This document shows, piece after piece, positions 14 through 43,153 of a stretch of DNA of 64,000 bases. The notes below the pieces were generated by a model. That model made no database searches and was not told the origin of the DNA. It worked only from the letters and a program-made list of their open reading frames with translations. Made by a program: the position numbers and the translations under genes. This DNA is from Azolla caroliniana (Eukaryota > Plantae > Polypodiophyta), in the NCBI GenBank assembly GCA_043228905.1, contig JBHGNT010000005.1, forward strand, positions 13,764,001 to 13,828,000. Direction: 5' to 3'. The first letter of the stretch is position 1; each line of letters opens with the position of its first letter.

Positions 14-3000
14 GTGCAGGATCGATCAACCTACCCCGTCATCCTTGCCCAGCCCTACATCACCGCAGTGAGGATGGAAACAAAGGTTATTGATGATGGT
101 TCGGCTTTCGCGAGAATCAAGAGTCAAGATGGAAGAAAGACTGTCCAATTCTTAACCGTGAGGCCCAACCATGAAAGAAACAAAGAATGCTTGAGGGAAC
201 ATCCAATTCAAGAGATGGATGAAGAGTTTTCCCAGGATTTTTAGATAGGGCTTTTACAGGTAGGGGCTGTGATAGCCCGAGCATAAAAGAAAACCCCATA
301 AATAATAATGTAAATAAAGATATTCCTTGTACAATCTCATCTAATGGTGCTACTTTTATACTAAAAGTAAATAATAATAAAATACAAAATGCTTTCGAGT
401 ACTTTAAGTGTTCTGGATTAATAGATGATGATGAAGAAATTCAGGATATGTTTGAAGAATTAAGTTTTGAAGATACAATAACTCATTTGGAAGCAATGGA
501 AGAAGACAACGAAATCCAAGTTCCTGTCCATTCAATCAAGATGTATGAGGTCATTGAAGAAGTTGCTCGAAAGGATCATGAAGCACATGTACTAACAAAG
601 TCCTATTGTTGCTCCACTTCCAGGGGATAGTGAAAAGGCAATCAAAGAAGCAGCCACAGAGCCAATGATCAGAGACCCACGAAAGGTAGGACATGTGTTT
701 ACTCCAGAAACAATACAAGGGATGAAAATAGGAGGGGGTGACTTCCTATTACCCGCTGAAGAAAAGCAGTTCAGGGAGATGTTAAAAAGGCATGGAAAGG
801 CGTTCGCATTCCAACCGGAGGAAATAGGGTGTGTGGATCCAGAAATTGTGGAGCCCATGGTTATATTCACTATCCCTCATATTCCATGGAACTTTAAGCC
901 AATACCCATGCCTAGGGCTAGAATCCCTCAACTATTAGAACTTTTGAAAGAAAAGATAAGGATGGGTATCTTGGAACCATCGAACGCTCCTTACTCGAGT
1001 CGATGGTTCACTGTGTTAAAGAAAGATGGGCGACTCCGATTTATCCAAGATATGCAACCCGTGAATAAGGTAACAATCCGAAACTCGGGAGTAGGGCCAA
1101 TTGTGGATGAGTTTGTTGAGATGTTTGCAGGAAGAGCTATATATTCAATGGGAGACCTTTATTCCAGGTATGATCAATTTCAACTTGCTATCAAAAGTCG
1201 AGATATAACTTCTATCAAGACACCTATAGGGTTAGTACGGATGTGCACCTTGCCGCAAGGAGCGACCAACTCAGTGGCGCATATGATGAATGGAATGAAC
1301 AAGGTACTTCGTGATTTTATTCCTCATATTACAATGCCTTTTCTAGATGATGTTCCAATTAAGGGATGCAAGGAGGAAGAGAAGAACGAGGAATTGGACG
1401 AAAGTGGTTGCCGTCAATTCGTTGCTGATCATATCAAGGATTGTGAGAAGGTGCTATCAAGGATGGAAGAAGTGCATTTGACCTTATCAGGGGCGAAGTC
1501 AATATTTGGGGCAAAAGAGATATTAATAGTTGGTCATATGTGTGGCCCGTATGGGAGAAAGCCATCCCCAACCAAGGTCAATGCAATTCAAAATATGCAA
1601 GAGGAATGTACATCCATCTCAGAAGTACGAAGGTTTTTGGGGGTATGTGTTTTTTACTGTAAATGGATTCCGCATTATGCCCATTTATCTGAACCTTTAT
1701 ATAGACTCCTAAGAAAAGGAGAGACATTTGAATGGAGTGAAGAGCATTCAGAGGCAATGAAGAAATTGAAGTACTACTTGGCACAATCTCCACCATTAAA
1801 GCAACCAGACTACACCCGGCCCATATATCTCACAGTAGACTCTAGTCCCATTGGAATTGGATGGGTGATAAGCCAACAAGATAGGGAAGAAAGGTATCCA
1901 GTCCGATTCGGGGCAAAGGTTCTTAGTGGTCGACAAAGAAAATATGCACAGGTGAAAAGAGAGCTATGAGGGATAGTAACAGTTGTAAAGACAGACAGAG
2001 ATTACTTAATTGGTGCTGAAGTAATAATAGAAACAGATTGTTTGCCTATTCTGGGTATCATAGCTAATTGTGATATTCCAGATCAAGCCATGTTAAGATG
2101 GTGTATCTATATTAGATCAATCAACCCTGAAGTTCGACATATCTCTGGGAATAGAAATGCAGTAGCAGATATGTTATCAAGAGCAAGGTATGAGGAAGAG
2201 GAGATTCCAGACTCGGACGATGAGGACAAAGAACAAATAGTCCTTACCACAAGCATTACTCGGGAAGGAGGAATGCAGTTTCTAGAAGAGGAGTATGAAG
2301 AAGAATTCAAGGAAATAGGGAAATACCTACAAACCCCTGACAAGTACAAAGGTCGATCTGGAAAAGAGTTCGCACAGTTTCGCAAGAAAGCCCATAAGTT
2401 CTTCCTGCATGAAGGATATCTATGGCGACATCTGAAAACCAAGAATGGAAACCCGCAAAGAGTAATAGGTTCTGAAGGGCAAAGAAAGGAGATAATCAGA
2501 GAGCTGCATGACAAAGAATGGGCTGGTCATCGAGGAGTGTGGGCCACTTTTAGTAAGATTAAAGAACGATTTTGGTGGCCTCAATACTATGAGCAAATAA
2601 AAAAGTATGTGGAAACTTGTCCCACTTGTCAATATTATTCAAATGTAAAATTTTGTGATGAATTACACCCAACATACTCACCGGGGGTGCATTACAAGTG
2701 GATGATAGATTTGGTAACAATGCCACTTGGAGTAGGACAAAAGAGATACTTGGTTCTTGCTAGAGAAGATCTAACAAATCAAGTGGAAGGTCGTTCATTG
2801 AGAACAAAAGGGACATTAGGAGTATGTCAATTCATCTTGGAGGACATTGTTTGTAGATATGGATGTATCGGGAAGATAGTGGCAGATAGGGGAGAACTCA
2901 ATTCTGCGGAAGCTCAAGATTTTTTCGACAAAATAGGAATTCGGCTTTCTTTGACAACGGCGTACAATCCAGAAGGTAATGGAAAGGTAGAAAGGGGACA

Positions 3001-3673
3001 TGGGCCAATAGTCAAAGCTTTGGCAAAGACATGTAGAGGACGGGTTAGTGATTGGCCAAAAACCTTACCCTATGCACTATGGGCTGATAGGACAACTCAC
3101 AGCACTGTTACTGGATATATGCCTGCAGAATTAATCACAGGACAGAAGCCAATAATGCCAATTGAAGAAAAGATAACTACATGGGTTGTGTTGCCTTGGG
3201 AATCGGAAATGAGTAGGGAAGATTTACTTGCGGTTCGAATACGACAACTTCAATTAAGGATAGAAGACATAGAAAAAGCAGCTACTAGATTGAAAGAGGC
3301 AAGAATCAAGAATAAGGACAGATTTGACAAGATGAAAAGAATACGACCAAGAAAGGTGCAAGAGGGAGATTGGGTATTAGTATATGATAATAGCCTAGAT
3401 AATCAATACAGTACTATTCGGAAGTTTGCAAAAAGATGGTTTGGACCTTATGAAGTTAGGAAAATAACAGATAAAGCCACATATTTCCTCAACGAATTAG
3501 ATGGGACAAAAATTCGTATCCCAATTGCAGGAAAAAGGATTAAAATATTTAAAAGGAGGGAATCATTAGGGCCTGAATTTTATGAAGAAGTAGAAGAACT
3601 AAAAGAATCGGAAGAAGTGTTGGATGAACTCTGCACAACCAATGTGCAAGTTCAGAGGGGGTGGGTGTCGTGA
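14..3673 (+). pseudogene. Gypsy A PR / RT-RNaseH-integrase polyprotein, disrupted
   Basis: ORFs 14-244, 448-630, 665-1969, 2042-3673; small deletion/frameshift near 600, TGA at 1967 where homologues have TGG (ELWG). Confidence 0.9.
235..297 (+). other. Putative -1 frameshift signal (GGATTTT + TAG, stem/pseudoknot), element A
   Basis: Slippery heptamer 235-241; GGGCT 248-252 pairs with AGCCC 274-278; loop GGGG 263-266 can pair with CCCC 294-297; -1 frame open into ORF 448-630. Confidence 0.75.
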
Positions 3674-4567
3674 AGAATGTGCTTCACGATATAAAAATGA
3701 GCTTAAATGTTGTATTTAATAATATTTGAGAGACTTGAACCCACATCCTTATATACGATGTACAATGTACATACCACTAGGCTAGGCTATTTATTTGTAA
3801 AAGTGTGTAATAAATGTGCTTCATGATATAAGAATGAAGCTATATATTGTATTAAGTAAAATTGAGGGACTTGAACCCTCAACCTTGTATACCAAGCACC
3901 AAGCATACACCACTAAGCTAGGTTAGTTATTTTAGAATGCATTTTCATCATTATAATTATCTCATATCTATTTTCATACATTGCCATCATTCATCACATG
4001 CAATGCATGTGCGCCAAATGGCGATCATGCATTACATGTAACTCATGCATGCCATGCTCCCATACATTACCATATGCATGGCAACACTTATATAAGAGGG
4101 GAAAGGGAAAACAAGGAAGGGAATCAAGAGAAAGGGAGAGAAATAAGATAATTAAAAAAACAAACAAGTTAGCTTATTGGTGAAGAGGCTCGTGTTTTCA
4201 AGTTGGAGTGAAGAGTTCGAATCAAGGGTCGGTAGAGAAAGGGTTCATCTTGCTACCAAACATCGTAAAGTTGGTAAAATCTTGTATTCGTAATACATAT
4301 CATATACTTTTTTGTCTTAAATCATACTTTGTCTCTATCTTGCGTCTTGAATCATACATTGCCTCTATCTTTTATCTATACTAGTCTCTCTCTCACACAT
4401 ATTACTTTAAACTATTATTCTTCATATCCTTTATCTTCCTAACATTTGAGCGCAAGCCTTATAAAAGTTCCTTCAACTCCCCTTAACCTTAGTCCCTGCG
4501 ACTTCGCCGCACGAACCACAACTACCCCGACACCGCATAAAGTCTTAGCTTGCGGTATCATTCGACA
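3666..4567 (+). repeat. 3' LTR of Gypsy A (~900 bp)
   Basis: TGTCG/CGACA inverted ends, preceded by PPT; TATA (TTATATAAG) ~4088; ~136-bp tandem duplication at 3675-3930. Confidence 0.88.
3724..3926 (-). promoter_or_regulatory. Two tandem tRNA-like modules (Pol III A-box/B-box) antisense within LTR A
   Basis: Minus strand: TAGCCTAGTGG...GGTTCAAGTC (3784-3732) and TAGCTTAGTGG...GAGGG-TTCAAGT-CCCTC (3920-3864), tRNA-like spacing. Confidence 0.6.
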
Positions 4568-7030: not shown

Positions 7031-10000
7031 TGTCGCGATGTGCGCGTCACACGTGCGCCGACTATCACCGGGCCTCTATCCGCAAGTGGTGATGGAGGAT
7101 CGTTCAAGATAATGAAACGGGAACGTGAGTGTCCGCACCGGAAGGACTCAATGTTTTACTAGCGCAAACGAGAAAATATTGAAGATAGATAGGTAGAGAC
7201 GGAAACTCCAATTCCGGGTTTGAACCCTTGACTTCAATGTTGAAAAACAAGACACGTCACCAATATGATAACTAGGTTTTTATTATTATTATCTTGATTT
7301 AGTACATAGCTTCCTTCATTCGCCCTCCTTTCTCTTCCTTTTTGTAAAGAATCGTATATGATTCTTGTGCAGCAGAAGAGATGTGTGTTATGTGTATGTG
7401 TGAGAGGAAAGAAATGTGAGAAGAAAAAACACAAGATATATTAGATAGAATAGAAAATAGAATATTCAAGAAGAAAATGTATATTCACAAGGAGAATATG
7501 AGATACAAAATGTAGCATTACAAGGAGTCACAACCGACACTATATGATGTAGGAGAAGGGTGCTTTATATAAGGTCGCCCTCTCTCTTCATTAACTCACT
7601 ACAACAACTACTCTCTCTTAGGGAATGTGAAGATTCATAGTCATGGGGAATATGGAACTCATTAGTTATGTGTCATAGAATATGATTCACTCTATGACAC
7701 ATAGTTAATGTGTAGAGAGTAGTGGTGTGACTCTTGACCTTTGAGTGATCATAGATTCTCAAAGTGTGTGTTCACACATTGCACTAGGTTGAGCTTGATT
7801 CTCAACACGCCCCCTCAAGCTCAACTTGGGTCATTTCCTTTCGGTTGATGTCCGCTTCGGCTGTTATCCGATTTAGACGATCTCCGGTGTCCAGTTGGGC
7901 TCGTACCCGGTTTAGACAGTATCCAGTTTTTTATTGTACTCCCCCCTCAAGCTTGTCAAATCAGGGATCGTCAATCCAAGGTCTAACATGAATTGCCTAA
8001 GCTTGTCGGCTCCTAGGGCTTTTGTAAAGATGTCGGTTGTCTGAAGATTTGTGTTGATGTGTTGAAGGTCGACATCTCCGGCGTGCACACGCTCTCGAAT
8101 GAAGTGATCAAGCACTTCGATATGCTTTGTGTGCGCATGGAACACCGGGTTCCGAGCCAAATATATATTGCTCATGTTCTCGCAGTAAAGGGGAGTCGGA
8201 TCCTTGATGGGAACGCCCAGATCCTTCAAAATACTCTTGAGCCAGACGGCTTCACATGCAGCCACGGTTGCGCCCCTGTATTCGGCCTCCATGCTCGAAA
8301 GTGCGATGGTAGGCGATGATCTTACACCCATTAAAGAAGCTTCTTGAGATCTTACCAAACTAAACATAGTGAAATGCAGAGGCAAAAAAGAATGAATTAG
8401 AAAATCGATAGAATAACTGAAATAAAGAAAATGATCTCTTTCAAGGCCTGTCTCCTATCTCTTCATTCATAAACATTCTTGCTACTTACTACTCCAAGGT
8501 ATTGCTCCACTACCGAGCGAGAAGACAAGTACAAAGGTCAATCATCGATCGGCTCTGTAGCCAACCTAGTCGGCATCTTTGTACCCTTCGAGTTGAATCG
8601 GTGTGGCCGATTCGTAGAGAATACCAGAATCCATTATTCCACTCATGTATCCCGCAGAGTTTGCATGAATTGGCTAAGGAGGCCGGCCGGATAGCTCAGG
8701 TCGGGTCAAGCGATCGTGAGGTAGATGAGACTCCCAATTAGTTGTCAATACTGAGTCGGCTTGCACTATTCCATGCCAGAGTCGGCATCTAGTTTGAGGT
8801 TTCGATCGAGAGGGGTTGCCACAGATTTGCACTCAGTCTCCTGAACTTGTATTATAAGGTGAGGATGTAGTGTCGTTGAGAGATCATAATGCCATCTGGA
8901 GTCTGAATTGCCTCGATGCCAAGGAAGTAATGGAGATCCTTCATGTCCATCATCACGAATTTGTTGCAGAGGAGGGACTTCACCTTGTTGATGTCGACTA
9001 AATGGTCACCTCCAATAACCATATTATTCACATATAGGATGATGACAATCGGGCTTCTAGAGTCATTTTGTACGTAGGGGGAGTTGTCGGATTTCGACAT
9101 TTGAAAGCTGATTTGATGAAGATATTGCATTATCTTCGAATGCCAAGCATGTGGTGTTTGTTTAAGGCCGTAGAGAGGCTTCTTGAGTTGGCAGACGTCT
9201 TTCAGATGAATGTTGGATTTGAAGTCGGGTGGTTGTACCATGTACACCTCCTCTTCTAATTCGCCTTAAAGAAAGGCATTCTGGACCTCCATCTGCTGGA
9301 CATGCCACCCTTTCACTACTGTGAGTGCGATCATGGTCCGCATAGTTGTCATCTTTGCCACCGGGGCAAAATTCTCTTCGTCGTGGAGTCTATGTGTCAG
9401 TGCGTATCCTTTCACTACGAGTTGAGCTTTGTAGTGGTTTATGAAACCGTCGGCATTATACTTCACCTTATATATCCATCTGCAACTAATTGCCTTCTTG
9501 TGCGGTGAGTGGGGAACAAGATCCCATGTCTCGTTCTTCCATAGTGCCTGCATCTCCTCATTCATTGCTTTGACCCATCGTGGATCCTTGGTTGCTTCCG
9601 AAGAACTTTCCGGTTCTCGAACTGTCACCACCTTCATCCTAAAGGCATAGTGGTATGGCATATAATCATTGTCGCTGAATCGGCTAACAAGATTCTTCTC
9701 ACGGGTGGAGCGACGAAGTTTTTCATTTTTTATGGCAATGGATTTCTTTACACCGGATGTCCTCATGATAGGTACATTGAAGCCACTCAACTCACTGTCG
9801 AGGGAGTGAGTCGATTTATTGCCGTAGAAGTGATCGTCTTCATATTCCAGCATTTTCACCTTGCCTTTGTCCATCTTTGGACTAGGCCTAGATGTGCTTT
9901 GGTCACTTGGGGGCTCTTGTGGCCCACTAGGTCTTGTCGTAATCGGACTTTCTTTGAACATGTGTTCGAGTCGATCTCCATCTTCTATCTCATGTTCGGC

Positions 10001-15052: not shown

Positions 15053-15771
15053 TGTCGCGAAGATGCGCGTGCATGCGTTCTTTGCTTGAGCGGGACCATT
15101 GGGGTCTCGGACCGGGGAGGATGTTTGTGAAATTGTCGAAAAGATGACGATATGTATGCAAGAGTCGAGGAAACTAATGTCACACTTGAGAAGATCGAAG
15201 ATTTTTATGCTTGAGAAGAAAATATATGTCAAGAAGAAGAATAAGAAGATTATTATATTATTCTTGATGATGATGATAATGATGATGATCTCCAAATTGA
15301 CCCCCCTTTACACGAGCCCAACTAGAGGCTTTTATAGGTCTCTCCATGCTTGTGACATGCAAGAAACCATGGGCTAAAACCATGGTTTTGCATATGACAT
15401 GCACAAAACCATGGGCTAAAACCATGGGCTAAAACCATGGTTTTGCATATGACGTGCACAAAACCATGGGCTTAAAACCATGGTTTTGTTTACACGGTTT
15501 TGTACATTTGTTTCCTATGGAATACTGAATATGACAAGGAAATATACAAAATCTAAAGCACTTAGTAGTAGCTTTAGTGGTAAGCTAATTGCTTCCTATC
15601 TTGGAGGTGTAAGGTTCAAATCTTACTTGCACCCCTCTATACACACTCAATGCCATTAGGCCCTAGGTTTATTTATTATTGATTTATTTTCATTTTTACA
15701 AGTATTTGTGAAATGTGTGTGTATCCTCACTTTTTGACTTTTTCTCGCACTAAACACACCACATCACGATA
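15053..15771 (-). mobile_element. Gypsy solo LTR inside gag of D
   Basis: TGTCGCG...CACGATA ends; 4-bp TSD GCGG/GCAG restores LIKRKRQ; TATA on minus ~15330; AAAACCATGG repeats 15360-15490. Confidence 0.85.
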
Positions 15772-21545: not shown

Positions 21546-22447
21546 TGTTGGGAGACAGGTCCCTCCGGATGGGAAGAGAAAAGAACAGTGATGATGAACA
21601 AACTCGGCTACAGAGAGCCGGATGATGCAGACCCGGTGAAGACCGGATGACGAGTACCCGGCTACGGAGAGTTGGATGGTGCAGACCTGGTGAGGACCGG
21701 ATGAGGAGTACCCGGCTACGGAGAGCCGGATGATGCAGACCCGGTGAAGACCGGATGAGGAGTACCCGGCTACGGAGAGCCGGATGGTGCAAACACGGTG
21801 AGGACCGGATGAGGAGTACCCGGCTACGGAGAGCCGGATGATGCAGACCCGGTGAAGACCGGATGAGGAGTACCCGGCTACGGAGAGCCGGATGGTGCAG
21901 ACCCGGTGAGGACCGGATGAGGAGTACCCGGCTATGGAGAGCCGGATGACGCAGACCCAGTGAGGAATGCTCTCCGGATGAAGAGACATATTCGTAAATA
22001 TGTTTCTGAAGAGCCCATCGTGGCTATATTTGTAAATAGCCGAAAAGTCATATTAGTATAAATATGACTTAGGGCAAACTTTTAGTAAAGGGTTGTTGTC
22101 ATTTCTTGTTTTGCACGAGATTAGTGCACGTAACAGTGTACAGAGAGAGAGAGAGAGAAAGAGGTCGTTGCCTCTACTGTAACCGCCACCTGTGGCGAAG
22201 ATCGTGAGCACGAGGTCGTTGCCTCTGTGAACTCACTGTTGTACATACTAACCTAGTGATAGTTGCAGCCTGTGGGCTGCCGTGGTTTTTCCCCTAGTTT
22301 GGGGTTTTCCACGTTAAACATCCTGCGTACAATTTTTCTTTCTTTCTCCTTTGTGTCGCGTGTTTTTCGTTTACTGTTTCTTCTGTGTATGATTCTAAGC
22401 TTGGTTGTGGCCAAGCGTTGTGCATAAGGAGCCTTGAGTTCCCGACA
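21546..22447 (+). mobile_element. Solo LTR (family shared with 24854-25510)
   Basis: TG...CA, perfect 5-bp TSD GAGTT, TATAAAT ~22057. Confidence 0.9.
21613..21965 (+). repeat. 54-bp tandem array, ~6.5 copies
   Basis: GAGAGCCGGATG(A/G)TGCAGACCCGGTGA(A/G)GACCGGATGAGGAGTACCCGGCTACG units start at 21613, 21667, 21721, 21775, 21829, 21883, 21937. Confidence 0.95.
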
Positions 22448-24853
22448 GAGTTTGATTCTCAACACTTTCTTTTATAGATGCCCCCATGCATATGATGCAT
22501 GTCATGGTGTAAGCCATGCATATAATCCATGAAATGCATGTGATGCATGATTTCCATTTGGCGCTCATGCATCGCATGTGATGCATGATAACTATGCCAC
22601 GCATGTACGAGAAATTAAATGTCAAAAGTACAATGATGAAAGTAGAGCTTAAAGAAACAACTTAGCCTAATGGTATATCAATTGTCTCCTATGTTGGAGG
22701 TTTAAGGTTCAAAACCCATATGCACATTAACGTGCTAATATACTAGTGTAACCATCACCCCTTTCATGCATGTGCACATTGCACCTTCTCAGTTTTCTCC
22801 TTTCCACGTGATTTTCACACCGTTGCCGAAAATCTTCACAACATCCTCCCCTACCAAACCGCACGTCCTCTGGTATGTGCGATCGATCCGATTCCTCCAC
22901 GTCCTTGTTGACCTCGCTCATTTTTATGGGTTCCACCCTACCATCTTCATTGTTGAGGTCATGGAGGTCAGGACCCTCATCTTGTCTTTTCTTGAAGATC
23001 TTTACACTTTTCCCCGCAGTGGGTATGGCCAACCTTGATCTGTCTAGCTCTGTGAGGTGGTAGGTGGCGTTGTCGTTGGCACTCATCACCACACACGGTG
23101 TGAACCACGTTCTTGCAAACTTCCAGTACCCAATCTCCTTCTTCAATCTTCTTGGGACACGGTTGATGTGTCTTGTCGAATCAAATCACTCAGGTTATCT
23201 GCATTATCTTTCGCGCATTCGCTAGATCTTCGGGTCTTCTTTTGAGCTGCCTTATCTGCGCCACTAATCATTCTTCCCATCTCATCTCATTCTCCCATGG
23301 TATTGCTACCCATGAGGCGATCGTCCTCTCGATGGGCATTACTGGCTTCTATCCATACATGAGCTCTGTTGGCATATAGCCTGTCACAGAACTATGCGTA
23401 GTTCTATCGGCTCACAATGCATAGGGCAATACTTGCGGCCAGTTCCCAACTCGATTGTCACATGCTCGTATGATGGCTTTGACTATCGGCCCATGCCCTC
23501 GCTCGATCTTCCCATTTTCTTCTGGATTGTAGGCAATCATGAGGGAGAGCTTCTCACCTAATCACTCGAAGACCTCCATTGCTTCGTGTGCATCCAACTC
23601 CCCTCGGTCGGCCACTATCTTTCCCACACATCCGTATCGGAGACAGCCTCTTCGAGCACAAATTTGCAAATGGTTTTCATCGCCTTATTTGCTAAGGCCC
23701 ATCCTTCTACCTGGCTTGTCAGGTCTTCCCTTGCTAGTACCAAGTACTTCATCTGTCCCACTCCCATTGGCATTGAGACCAGATCCACCATCCATTTAAA
23801 GTGTATAGTGAGTGGGTATGTTGGTTGCAACTCATCATGGTGACGTATGTTCGAATGTACTTGGCAGCTTTTGCATGTGGACATGAAATGTAGTACATCT
23901 TTATATATGCTCAGCCACTAGTACTTCTCCTTCAACTTTTCAAATGTTGCCCATGTTCCTCTATGGCCTGCCCATGGACTCTCGTGGAATTCAAACATCA
24001 ACGTTGTCTTGTCCTCTCTCTTCACCACTACTTGTCATGGCATCCCTATCCTTCTCTTTGGCTGGTGCCAGAGGAATCCTCCCTTCAAAAAATACTCGTA
24101 AGCTTTCTTCCGTATTTGTAGAGCCTCCCCCTTCGTCCACGAAGCATCTGCCATCATTGTTCTCAAGAACTTGCTGATTAGTAACCACTCCCCTTCATAC
24201 TCATTCTCGTTGAAAGCGTTGAGGGTTGGCATGCCTCTGTCTTCTACCAATAGTCGGGCTACGTTGAAGAAGTCGAGGGCGACTTCTTCATCTTCCGAAA
24301 CCACGTCACTTTCATCCTCGAATCTTGCTCTTGACAGCATGTCGGCCACGGCGTTGTTCTTCCCAACAATGTGGCAAATCTTTGGGTTTAAAGACTTGAT
24401 ATAAGAAATCCACCTTAGCATAGCCAGATCCGGTGTCGCAGATCCGGAGATCATCCCAAGGATTGGGAGGCAATCTATTTCAATTACCACTTCCAACCCG
24501 ATCAGGTAGTCTTTGTCTACCTTCACTGCAAACACAATACCCCAAAGTTTCCTTTTGACTTGGGCATATCCTCGTTGTCACTCCGAACCGGATGGCGCAC
24601 CGCACACTATCTTCTCCTTCTTGGTTGATGACCCATCCAATTCCCATTGGGCTCGTATCTACCATGCCATAGATGGGCATCCCTTATTTGTAGATTGCTT
24701 TCCTTAAAGCGGGTGCTGCCACCAATAGCCCTTTTAACCTCTTCATCGCTTCTGTGTGCACCGGTTCCCATTTGAATTTTCTCCCTTTCATCAGTAAGCT
24801 ATACAAAGGTTCAACCACATGAGCATACTGCAGAATCCAAATGTGGTAGAACA

Positions 24854-25203
24854 TGTTGGGAGACAGGTCCCTCCGGATGGGAAGAGAGAAGAACAATGTT
24901 GATGAACAAACTCGGCTGAGGTCGAAATCGTATGATGAGTACCCGACTACGAAGAGCCGGATGGTGCAGACCCGGTGAGAACCGGATAAGGAGTACCCGG
25001 CTACGGAGAGCCGGATGGTGCAGACCCGGTGAGGAGTGCTCACCGGATGAAGAGACATATTCGTAAATATGTTTATGAGAGTCCATCATGGCTATATTTG
25101 TAAATAGCCGAAAAGTCATATTAGTATAAATATGACTTAGGGCAAACTTTTAGAGTTGTCGTTATTCTTGTTGGTGCAAGAAGAGAGAGAGTGTGTAACC
25201 GTG

Positions 25204-34836: not shown

Positions 34837-36435
34837 TCAGACGGTCAGTTCGAGCTTACTGTTGCCCTCATCCCCATCCCCATCGATTTCGTTCTCGCCT
34901 GTGATCTCCTCAAGAGATCGACCATTTGTCTCTGGCACAAGGAACGTGAAGAAAAATCCTAGAGCATTGATGCCGCCCAGAATGAGTAGGGATGTGCGGA
35001 CGCCAACGCCGTTGGGATATCCGGCATCTTGCTCACCGGGAGTCTTGCTTTGGGCCGCATAAAGGAAGCCAAACGCGCCAATAATGGCCCCCGCCTTGCC
35101 GGCCGCAGCAGAAATACCGTGGCATGTGGATCGCAGCCGTGCGGGGAACACCTCCGCAGGAACAATGAAAGTGGTGCTGTTTGGACCGAAGTTTGCAAAG
35201 AAGAATGTGAAGGCATACAACACCACGAACGTGATGCGATGGTTCTTCTCCTTGAGTGTGTCGTAGGGAATGGCCAAGCCCAGCATGAAGGCTGTCATCA
35301 TGAAGAAGCCCATGAGCTGGATTTTGAATCTCCCCAGTATGTCAATAAAGGCGACGGTGAACCAGTAGCCGGGGACAGTGGAGCAAAGCGCGATGAGCGC
35401 CTGCGCTTTGCTGATCTTGAACACCTCCTCCAGCGCGCTCATGGTTGCGGCCTTTGGCAGCCACTCGATGGCCGTCAACACGTCCTTCTGGAACAGGTTC
35501 TGGCTGTAGAAGGCGATGTCCAGCAGGAACCAGGTGCTTGTTGTTCCCAACAGATGCAGCCCATGCCGCCGAGCGAACTCTGCTGAGAACAGCCCGTACT
35601 TCTGGCTTCGGTCAGACCGGATTTTGTCCACCTTCTCTTGCTCCGCATTAAGCTCCACCGCCAGGACTTTGGTCATGTCTTGAGCCGCTTGCTTTGCATT
35701 CCCTTCCACCAGTGCCGTATAACGAGCAGTCTCCGGCATCTTCATCCGCCAGTAGTACGTCAGCAATGCTGGTATGGCCCCCAACATGAACACCAGCCGC
35801 CACACGAAATCCGCTTGCTTCGGTGTTGAGCCCACACGGTCTACACTGTAGGGTGGGCGTGGGTCAGCATTATTGAAGGCAGAGGAGACAATGATGGAGA
35901 CTGTGGCCCCCGCGAGGATCCCCGTGCCCTGCATCGCAAACACTGCGGCAATGAATGCACCACGCGTGCGCTTGTTCGCATACTCCGACATGATGGTCGC
36001 CGACAGCGGATAATCACCACCGATCCCGAAGCCGAGCCAAAAGCGGAAGAAACAGAGCGTGGTCATCACAGACTTGGCAGTAGAGCCGAAGGAGAGCGCA
36101 GATGCGATAGAGCATATGACCATGAGGAGGAGTGTAACACCGTACACCTTCTTGCGCCCCAATTTGTCGCCCAGCCAACCAAAGAAGAGTTGGCCAGCGA
36201 GCGTGCCACATAGGGCGACACCATTGACGGCTGCAGAGACATTTGGGGGCAACGTTCCTGGTTTAGTACTGTCAGGATTGAAGTAGTAGATGCGGCCTAG
36301 GAGCTTAGTCACGGTGGAGATGCAGAAGAGATCGTAAGCATCGGTGAAAAAACCCATTCCGGCAATCACTATGGCAGTGAAGTGGTACCATTGCGTCTTC
36401 GCCTTGTCCAATGCCGTCAAAACCTCCAACGCCAT
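34837..36435 (-). CDS. PHT1: PHT1-family inorganic phosphate:H+ symporter (MFS), 532 aa, single coding exon
   Basis: Intact ORF; family signature [14 protein letters not shown]-terminal [47 protein letters not shown]; multiple hydrophobic segments. Confidence 0.97.
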
Positions 36436-36450
36436 TTCCAGAGTTGCAAC

Positions 36451-42068: not shown

Positions 42069-43153
42069 TGTCGTGAAGATCCGTCTCTATGTGCGGATTG
42101 TGAGGCGGAACCGCCGGGGTTCTGGACCGGAAGGATTGAAGCACCCACTAGCTTTAGCGAGAAAGGATTTAAGATAGTTTGAGGGAGAGAGATTGAGATG
42201 GCGAAAGAGAGATAGAGAGTGAGAGAGATAAGAGTGAACTTTTAACTTTAGATTCGAGAGACAAGATATATCATCAATTGGAGAACGGATTTTTCTTCTT
42301 CTTAAATTCTTGAATCCCTAAAACATTACATACCTTTGATCTTTTTCATCCATCCTTTTATAGATGCTCCCATGCATATGATGCATGCGGGTACAAGACA
42401 TGCATGAAATGCATGTGATACATGTTTGCCATTTGGCGCTCATGCATCACATGTCACTCAATCAAGCTCTAATATGAGAATTTACATGTAAAAGTGTAAT
42501 GATAAGAAAAACATTTTTAAGAAAAAGTTATAGCCTAGTGGTAAGTCTATAGACTCTCAATGTGGAGGTGCAAGGATCAAGTCTTCACTTGCACTCTTTT
42601 TGAATATACACACACACACACACATATATGTTTATTATTATTAATGTATTTTTTTACAAGGCATTCCTTTGTCCGGTCATTGTCTTGTCGGCTCTATCGG
42701 TCGCGGTCGCCGGGTGATGTCGGATGCCGGATCCCGTCGGTCGCCGTCGTCGAATTCGTCCAAAACACATAGTTATATGCATTTGGCTACATCCATTCGT
42801 TAAGTCATATAACTTAACCTGTCTATGCTCCACACATAAACACAAAGATAAAGCTTTTGTTCTTCCTTATATATAGTGGGTTACTTATTTGTCCTGTCTA
42901 TGTGGGATATCACATATTTTTCTCTTCTTCTTTGCAAACTTCATACCCACATAACTTGACACTTAGATGTCCGTTTCCTACGTAGTAAAGCACATTTAGA
43001 TGCTCTTCAAGACATCCATCTTTTTGTACCAAGATATTAAAATTATTTAAAATAGTATCTTTACTATTATTGTTTATATTTCATGAGAGGAACCACGCTC
43101 GATTTCGTATGTTTCTTACAAGTTTCACATTATTGCTGAAAATCTTCACGACA
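42069..43153 (-). mobile_element. Gypsy solo LTR inside gag of I
   Basis: TGTCGTGAAGAT...ATCTTCACGACA 12-bp inverted ends; 4-bp TSD ACGG/TCGG restores CYICRKDGHYANQCP. Confidence 0.9.

Follow-up and report, generated by a model that had tools for sequence, protein, structure and literature searches.

The stretch of DNA analysed here (the window, 64 kb, 13764001-13828000 of C5 in the 523-Mb Azolla caroliniana assembly) consists of nested LTR retrotransposons; coordinates given without a contig are window positions. A young 7.3-kb autonomous-type Ty3/gypsy element of the Phygy type (family A) contributes an RT-RH region (596-1966) and an INT region (1970-3670), both recognised by their Pfam domains, and a polypurine tract (3654-3665, plus strand), read from the sequence and the same in other 3' LTR copies. 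The tract precedes the 3' LTR, LTR A (3666-4532, plus strand, 867 bp), which has TG...CA ends and a 4-bp TSD, CCGC. This LTR is 99% identical to the 5' LTR of the element (L002), and a putative Pol II TATA box, placed by its sequence and position, lies at 4089-4095 (plus strand).

Three further LTRs are found on the minus strand: a solo LTR of family B (15053-15771), a 3' LTR of family C with a polypurine tract before it (22460-22843, shortened by another insertion) and an LTR of family D (42069-42800), whose 3' end is at 42069 and whose 5' end, beyond 42800, is not fixed. All three belong to Trp-primed families related to family A; elsewhere in the genome, family B LTRs flank non-coding elements of about 3.7 kb with a Trp PBS. 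The PBS of element A complements the 3' end of the genome's own tRNA-Trp. Published marks of the Phygy clade are a 4-bp NCGN TSD and a tRNA-Trp PBS, the latter in 81% (PMC6317226). By the TSD CCGC, the Trp PBS and these clade marks, we assign the host elements A-D to the Phygy type, element A being slightly shorter than the published range of 7.7-10 kb. Neither a chromodomain nor an extra RNase H was detected by Pfam in the Phygy-type hosts, and the coding region fills their interior.

Five modules resembling the internal promoter of a tRNA gene had been described in these four LTRs by an earlier, sequence-only reading, and all of them were found in place. Module A1 (3732-3784, minus strand) contains an A box (T8 at 3784), positions 44-47 and a B box (G52 at 3741). 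Module A2 (3858-3920, minus strand) comprises an A box (T8 at 3920), AGGT at positions 44-47 and a B box (G52 at 3877) in a 7-bp hairpin, together with a T4 run at 3861-3858. Modules B (15569-15622), C (22663-22715) and D (42531-42583) lie on the plus strand, antisense to LTRs B, C and D, with T8 at 15569, 22663 and 42531. The tRNA-like spacing was confirmed, too: the B box follows 43-44 nt downstream and T8 to T54 measures 45-46 in all five modules, which are antisense to their own LTR and lie in U3 at 167-303 nt before the TATA box. The copy at 3920 does have the reported 7-bp T-arm and a T4 run three bases after position 65, but T-arm, CT-TGG-TA loop and T4 are peculiar to that copy. Inspection by eye gave a hairpin enclosing the B box in A2, B and D; it is not general across families and was rejected as a conserved feature.

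On a matrix of the boxes, whose training included these same five modules, they score 37-44 bits compared to a maximum of 9.1 bits in shuffled LTRs (n = 190). The five are not independent, because LTRs A, C and D are homologous to each other, and A1 and A2 are the two copies of a 136-bp tandem duplication with 78.5% identity. Between module and TATA box, families A, C and D carry clusters of CATGCA-type repeats (3990-4085, 22470-22610 and 42360-42450), which we take to be RY-like. Family B has AAAACCATGG palindromic repeats at this place, and TTCTAGAA repeats occur in the Tcn1-like LTRs described below.

Furthermore, LTR A contains a weaker tRNA-like module on the sense strand (4170-4223, plus strand), located in the R region 80 nt downstream of the TATA box, with a T8-T54 distance of 46 and a score of 22.4 bits (null maximum 9.1). 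It was recovered at 27 of 30 family A loci, the remaining three not being anchored. A homologous module (7217-7270, minus strand, 27.1 bits) lies in the 3' part of another Phygy-like LTR, with a BLAST match to positions 476-556 of LTR A. Sense modules about 80 nt downstream of the TATA box are present in families A and C, in L163 and at 7270 (12.7-27.1 bits, null maximum 9.1), and family G has one at a different place (15.0 bits). In families D and F the sense module is decayed, and the matrix scan gave none in family B, the H families and the Tcn1-like LTRs. Where an LTR has both modules, they diverge from the TATA box, one on either side.

Other features of the window are an intronless ORF for an MFS sugar transporter among the nested elements (34837-36450, minus strand, 537 aa, PF00083) and a 54-bp tandem repeat array inside a copia-like LTR region (21548-22033) with a related copy at 24887. 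Genome-wide, tRNA-Trp, the Phygy primer, gave 48 pattern matches, and long tandem arrays of tRNA-Trp/tRNA-Gly genes occur at C8:17.80-17.82 Mb, C9:17.81-17.83 and 19.70 Mb, and C16:5.0-5.1 Mb.

Distribution of the module in the genome

A search pattern combining the 3' A box with the B box gave 7,705 exact matches in the genome compared to 2 for the reversed control; the module is therefore not a product of chance. Among the first 30 matches, 25 fell into LTRs, 2 into a SINE and 2 into a TIR element, and 1 was unplaced. Thirteen of these 30 loci belong to a second lineage, characterised by LTRs of 425-445 bp, a chromodomain, the absence of a tRNA PBS and an apparent self-primer. Its RT is 23-29% identical to that of element A, a chromodomain was detected in L200 (PF00385, E 3e-14) and an LTR-complementary self-primer was seen by eye in L200, L204 and L206. 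Judged by its chromodomain and self-priming features, this second host lineage appears to be a Tcn1-like chromovirus.

Module hosts encode RT-RH-INT and measure about 5-9 kb, the determined lengths being 5.6-8.1 kb; non-coding derivatives measure about 3-4 kb. Four elements (L197, L203, L205 and L215) are non-coding, 3.2-3.7 kb long and equipped with a Trp PBS and the module, and some of their LTR pairs are 100% identical; they are non-autonomous Phygy derivatives that were recently mobilised.

LTRs were also sampled by their primer features, with module calls based on box matrices cross-trained between the lineages. The Trp PBS pattern gave 6,710 genome matches, and in 29 Phygy LTRs sampled by this PBS alone the antisense module was present in 4 and absent in 25. 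The Tcn1-like self-primer pattern gave 2,301 matches; in 30 LTRs sampled by it, a matrix trained on Phygy only detected the module in antisense in 25 and in sense in none. Among the five without a call, four are interrupted or shortened and one has a spacer deletion.

Module-less Phygy LTRs in which a TATA box could be located have a short U3 with 45-58% GC. Throughout the commonest Phygy clade (L136-L165) U3 is short, GC- and CpG-rich and free of both the module and CATGCA repeats, whereas U3 is AT-rich in the module-bearing families; possibly, these are two promoter strategies within Phygy. The module-less Phygy elements form one young clade (100/100) in an RT tree, among diverse module-bearing families of 59-73% identity, and their split from the module-bearing ones is weaker in an integrase tree; each tree contained just five module-less rows with pol (14/15 rows each). 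A loss of the module in one Phygy clade appears likely.

Among metagenome relatives with at least 60% integrase identity, the module was found in 11 of 19 scorable loci, the close ones coming from few assemblies. In more distant chromoviruses of the metagenome contigs it was found in 0 of 27, and 8 of the 54 loci had too little downstream DNA to be scored. The sharing of the module with an unrelated chromovirus lineage, its absence from the commonest Phygy clade and the second, sense-strand module are points missing from the sequence-only reading.

Conserved parts and origin of the module

Conservation was assessed in 19 family representatives with one copy each, which are not phylogenetically independent. 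T8-T54 measures 44-46 in all 19, and A14, G18, G19, G53, T55 and A58 are present in 19/19; both results were partly selected for. At least 10 of the 19 had been selected partly by positions A14-20 and B52-61, so that the identities over 84 Phygy versus Tcn1 pairs of 90% (A14-20) and 83% (B52-61) are partly circular. At positions 44-47, whose AGGT is absent from the search pattern, identity in these pairs is 92% compared to 37% expected. The spacer (22-43) reaches 30% compared to 26% expected, the flanks are at background, and identity falls to 48-54% in the 5' half of the A box (8-13). Within the lineages, spacer identity is 38% for Phygy and 51% for Tcn1. Over the 19 representatives, the kept parts (A box, B box and AGGT) are 80-93% identical. 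A spacer length of 31-32 was found in 215 of 233 collected copies, with a pattern that allowed 28-34. C56 is the majority base in all 12 of the 12 largest module clusters, and position 57 alternates between G and A, as the B box permits. In yeast TFIIIC, the sole WH contact outside the B box is G47 (WH3), a numbering taken from a yeast gene that may not map exactly onto the module positions, and mutations at +44 to +47 change TFIIIC binding or transcription (PMC11724288).

The claim that the boxes are better conserved than the sequence between them proved true both between and within families. Within families A-D (24/30, 19/25, 19/25 and 18/25 loci after removal of self and LTR twins), the boxes vary by 2.0-2.6%, the spacer by 3.8%, the flanks by 4.6-6.0% and the rest of the LTR by 6.6%; the contrast between boxes and spacer is modest here (p = 0.04 on shared-variant sites, which are not independent). 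Between the 5' and 3' LTR of one element, whose divergence is neutral, 17 of 693 box sites and 32 of 1091 spacer sites differ (p = 0.66; 25/26 pairs, a few pairings being presumed from position, with copies required to score 18 bits). Since boxes and spacer mutate equally after insertion, box conservation is not due to a mutation cold spot. The pattern suggests that a DNA motif, and not an RNA shape, is under selection in the lineages that replicate.

ARAGORN found no tRNA gene in the window, and Rfam gave no tRNA match. The covariance-model check with RF00005 proposed earlier thus turned out negative for the window, and a functional tRNA was rejected. For the L140 module, the best Rfam match was a plastid model (E 1.1, not significant), and 5S rRNA gave no Rfam match in the window at E<=10. 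Stem pairing in the 19 families (acceptor 43/133, anticodon 39/95, T49-51 27/57) was no better than in slid controls; in the same test, genuine tRNAs showed 70/70 acceptor pairs. Folds differ between the families, and no fixed T4 terminator was found in them, the first T4 being 3-390 nt away or absent.

The module would have been captured from a tRNA or a SINE head, either once with later transfer between the lineages or twice independently. The suggestion that such a head was captured and kept is supported for the tRNA/SINE-type origin and for the selective retention of the boxes, and a free SINE with the same layout is present in the genome. No single source tRNA emerged among the 29 sequences of an incomplete panel, the best spacer matches being scattered over Arg, His, Gln, Asp and Gly, and tRNA-Trp matches the spacer of Phygy modules at a mean of 6.2/22. 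The free tRNA-derived SINE (67 first-look candidates; L266-L275, e.g. C1:1649699-1650050), a family of which we found no description in the literature, is about 370 bp long, starts about 13 nt before T8 and has an A-rich tail and TSDs of 10-18 bp. It shares the boxes and the AGGT with the modules, reaching 41 bits on their matrix. Its spacer is unrelated, matching that of Phygy at 5.1/22 and that of Tcn1 at 6.9/22, and an A-rich tail was not seen by eye in the LTR copies. A shared ancestry of U3 in Phygy and Tcn1 was rejected, since alignments of the 70 nt upstream do not exceed those of shuffled sequences (mean z 0.16 over 84 pairs). A non-coding TIR element of about 710 bp (847 candidates; L276-L285, e.g. 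C1:12217500-12218160) also contains a decayed A/B-box module, which lacks AGGT and is repeated in tandem in some copies.

Possible role of the module and alternative explanations

In two distant Ty3/gypsy lineages, the module lies antisense in U3 at a distance of 113-303 nt upstream of the TATA box and has the sequence of a type 2 Pol III promoter. The flank upstream of it contains 79% AT, as at genuine tRNA genes. TFIIIC probably binds the module. Our preferred explanation, held at about even odds, is that selection retains the module as a docking site for TFIIIC, which would act on the chromatin of the adjacent Pol II promoter; this agrees with the insulator or nucleosome-clearing function suggested in the sequence-only reading. 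TFIIIC would bind the B box and positions 44-47 and would use the A box to position TFIIIB on the AT-rich sequence that separates the module from the TATA box. The bound complex would act as a barrier, as a nucleosome organiser or as a block to read-in transcription, and would benefit elements landing inside other elements; insertion into other elements was seen in the flanks of both host lineages. Any Pol III transcript would be a by-product. The main module cannot make element RNA because it points away from the Pol II promoter.

The barrier function of TFIIIC has been demonstrated mainly in yeasts. Product-independent effects of Pol III complexes in yeast comprise barrier, nucleosome-phasing and roadblock activity, and yeast tRNA genes can repress nearby Pol II promoters, too (PMC4228148). 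The effect of the module on its promoter may likewise be activating or repressing. A strong roadblock in the 3' LTR would possibly hinder the element's own transcript, which crosses U3. Furthermore, the module is dispensable, because the commonest, young Phygy clade lacks it (25 of 29 PBS-sampled LTRs).

Instead of a docking site, the module might be an active Pol III promoter whose selected product is an antisense or outward RNA, e.g. small RNAs tuning the element or silencing competitors. This would fit the retention of A box, spacing and AT-rich upstream flank and not of the B box alone, the 41 bits scored by an active-looking SINE on the same matrix, the T4 within 10 nt in A2 and D and the transcription of Cassandra LTRs by Pol III (PMC10886601). 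We nevertheless regard it as unlikely, given the erratic first T4 (3-390 nt off or absent), the unconserved fold and spacer and, in Tcn1-like LTRs, a transcript that would exit the 5' LTR within 70-117 nt. The antisense small RNA considered in the sequence-only reading is weakened by the same features, as terminator, fold and spacer sequence are all unconserved. There is little probability, too, that the module is a functionless passenger left by an old SINE or tRNA insertion, as its absence from the dominant Phygy clade and the decay of the sense module in families D and F might suggest. Boxes remain 80-93% identical and the spacer only 30-38% (Phygy-Phygy and Phygy-Tcn1) while identity between Phygy RTs drops to 59-73%, 215 of 233 copies have a spacer of 31-32, and boxes and spacer mutate at equal rates after insertion; the between-lineage box identity and the LTR-pair test largely refute a mere passenger.

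A role in the element RNA, with U3 in sense orientation base-pairing to the D and T arms of its primer tRNA (a bipartite PBS as in Ty3) or of tRNAs in general, agrees with the antisense orientation and the U3 position, which match the arrangement in Ty3 (PMC5371799), and with the presence of AATGGTA and AGGT at the conserved places of tRNA-Trp. It is nonetheless improbable: in duplex energy tRNA-Trp has a median rank of only 7th among 15 tRNAs, none of the 19 families matches it at positions 52 and 59 even though 18 of them retain G52, the stems between the loops are unmatched, and the Tcn1-like hosts have no tRNA PBS and look self-primed. Finally, one Tcn1-like LTR (L247, C1:7905440 region) is interrupted by an insertion that lies about 9 nt upstream of its A box, close to the predicted Pol III start, as would be expected if the module served elements targeting such start sites as a landing pad or decoy. 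This was 1 case in the Tcn1-like sample of 30, and inspection by eye of the 45 nt preceding 25 LTR modules showed no obvious break, which makes this explanation highly improbable.

Going beyond a docking site as such, it is conceivable, though somewhat doubtful, that two unrelated clades of autonomous elements each adopted, or swapped, a tRNA promoter that serves as a movable insulator binding TFIIIC. The TATA box of some Phygy families would then lie between two divergent modules, which would keep the promoter open in heterochromatic TE islands, with about 8,000 TFIIIC sites in the genome, far more than tRNA genes. With thousands of mobile sites of the TFIIIC type, chromatin domains could be affected and tRNA genes could face competition for the factor. 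How heterochromatin-seeking plant retrotransposons remain transcribed after insertion is an open question on which the module bears, and chromodomain targeting has been suggested for such elements (PMC7466625). A compact, twice-used and mutable 55-bp motif makes the questions of post-insertion transcription and of a TFIIIC barrier directly testable.

Relation to known systems

Both host lineages match the defining features of their clades, i.e. Trp PBS and NCGN TSD for Phygy, chromodomain and self-priming for Tcn1 (PMC6317226, PMC2864245, PMC7466625). In the accessible parts of this clade literature we found no mention of a tRNA-like promoter in their LTRs. A literature search, with most subscription papers and the Repbase reports outside its range, brought up no tRNA-like promoter described for LTRs of mosses or of autonomous plant elements, and for Pol III promoters in LTR elements it gave only short non-autonomous cases. 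The bare observation may be known to curators, because Kojima (2024) mentions tRNA-like pieces in other Repbase LTRs: "not a few" of them are said to contain tRNA-like sequence, with the analysis limited to TRIMs under 1 kb (PMC10886601).

Among the known systems, Ty3 has a bipartite PBS with tRNA-complementary sequence in the U3 of its element RNA, too, but matches its own primer contiguously (PMC5371799), whereas no primer preference is seen here and one host lineage lacks a tRNA primer. The tDNA and ETC sites of yeast resemble the module in having TFIIIC-type boxes near Pol II promoters, with a proposed function as barrier, insulator or roadblock. They are fixed host loci, whereas the modules are the cargo of mobile elements, and ETC sites are without TFIIIB and Pol III, whereas the modules keep an A box at tRNA spacing (PMC4228148).

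Cassandra TRIMs of vascular plants likewise carry an internal Pol III promoter in their LTRs. They differ in being 5S-derived (boxes A and C) and non-autonomous, with conserved terminators and an RNA made by Pol III (PMC7215508, PMC10886601). Helenus/TRIMp3 elements contain tRNA-derived sequence in both LTRs that is conserved only around boxes A and B and gives no functional tRNA, and SINE capture has been proposed for them (Kojima 2024, PMC10886601). According to the same paper, Selaginella is their sole plant case, and autonomous partners without such LTR sequence are expected. Helenus elements are non-coding and 311-1263 bp long, whereas the module hosts described here are coding elements of about 5-9 kb. 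Their promoter is proposed to make the template RNA (PMC10886601), whereas our main module is antisense, beside a Pol II TATA box, and only the weaker second module is in sense orientation. The capture of Pol III promoters thus extends from short parasites such as Cassandra and Helenus to autonomous elements, in which the strand rules out the making of element RNA.
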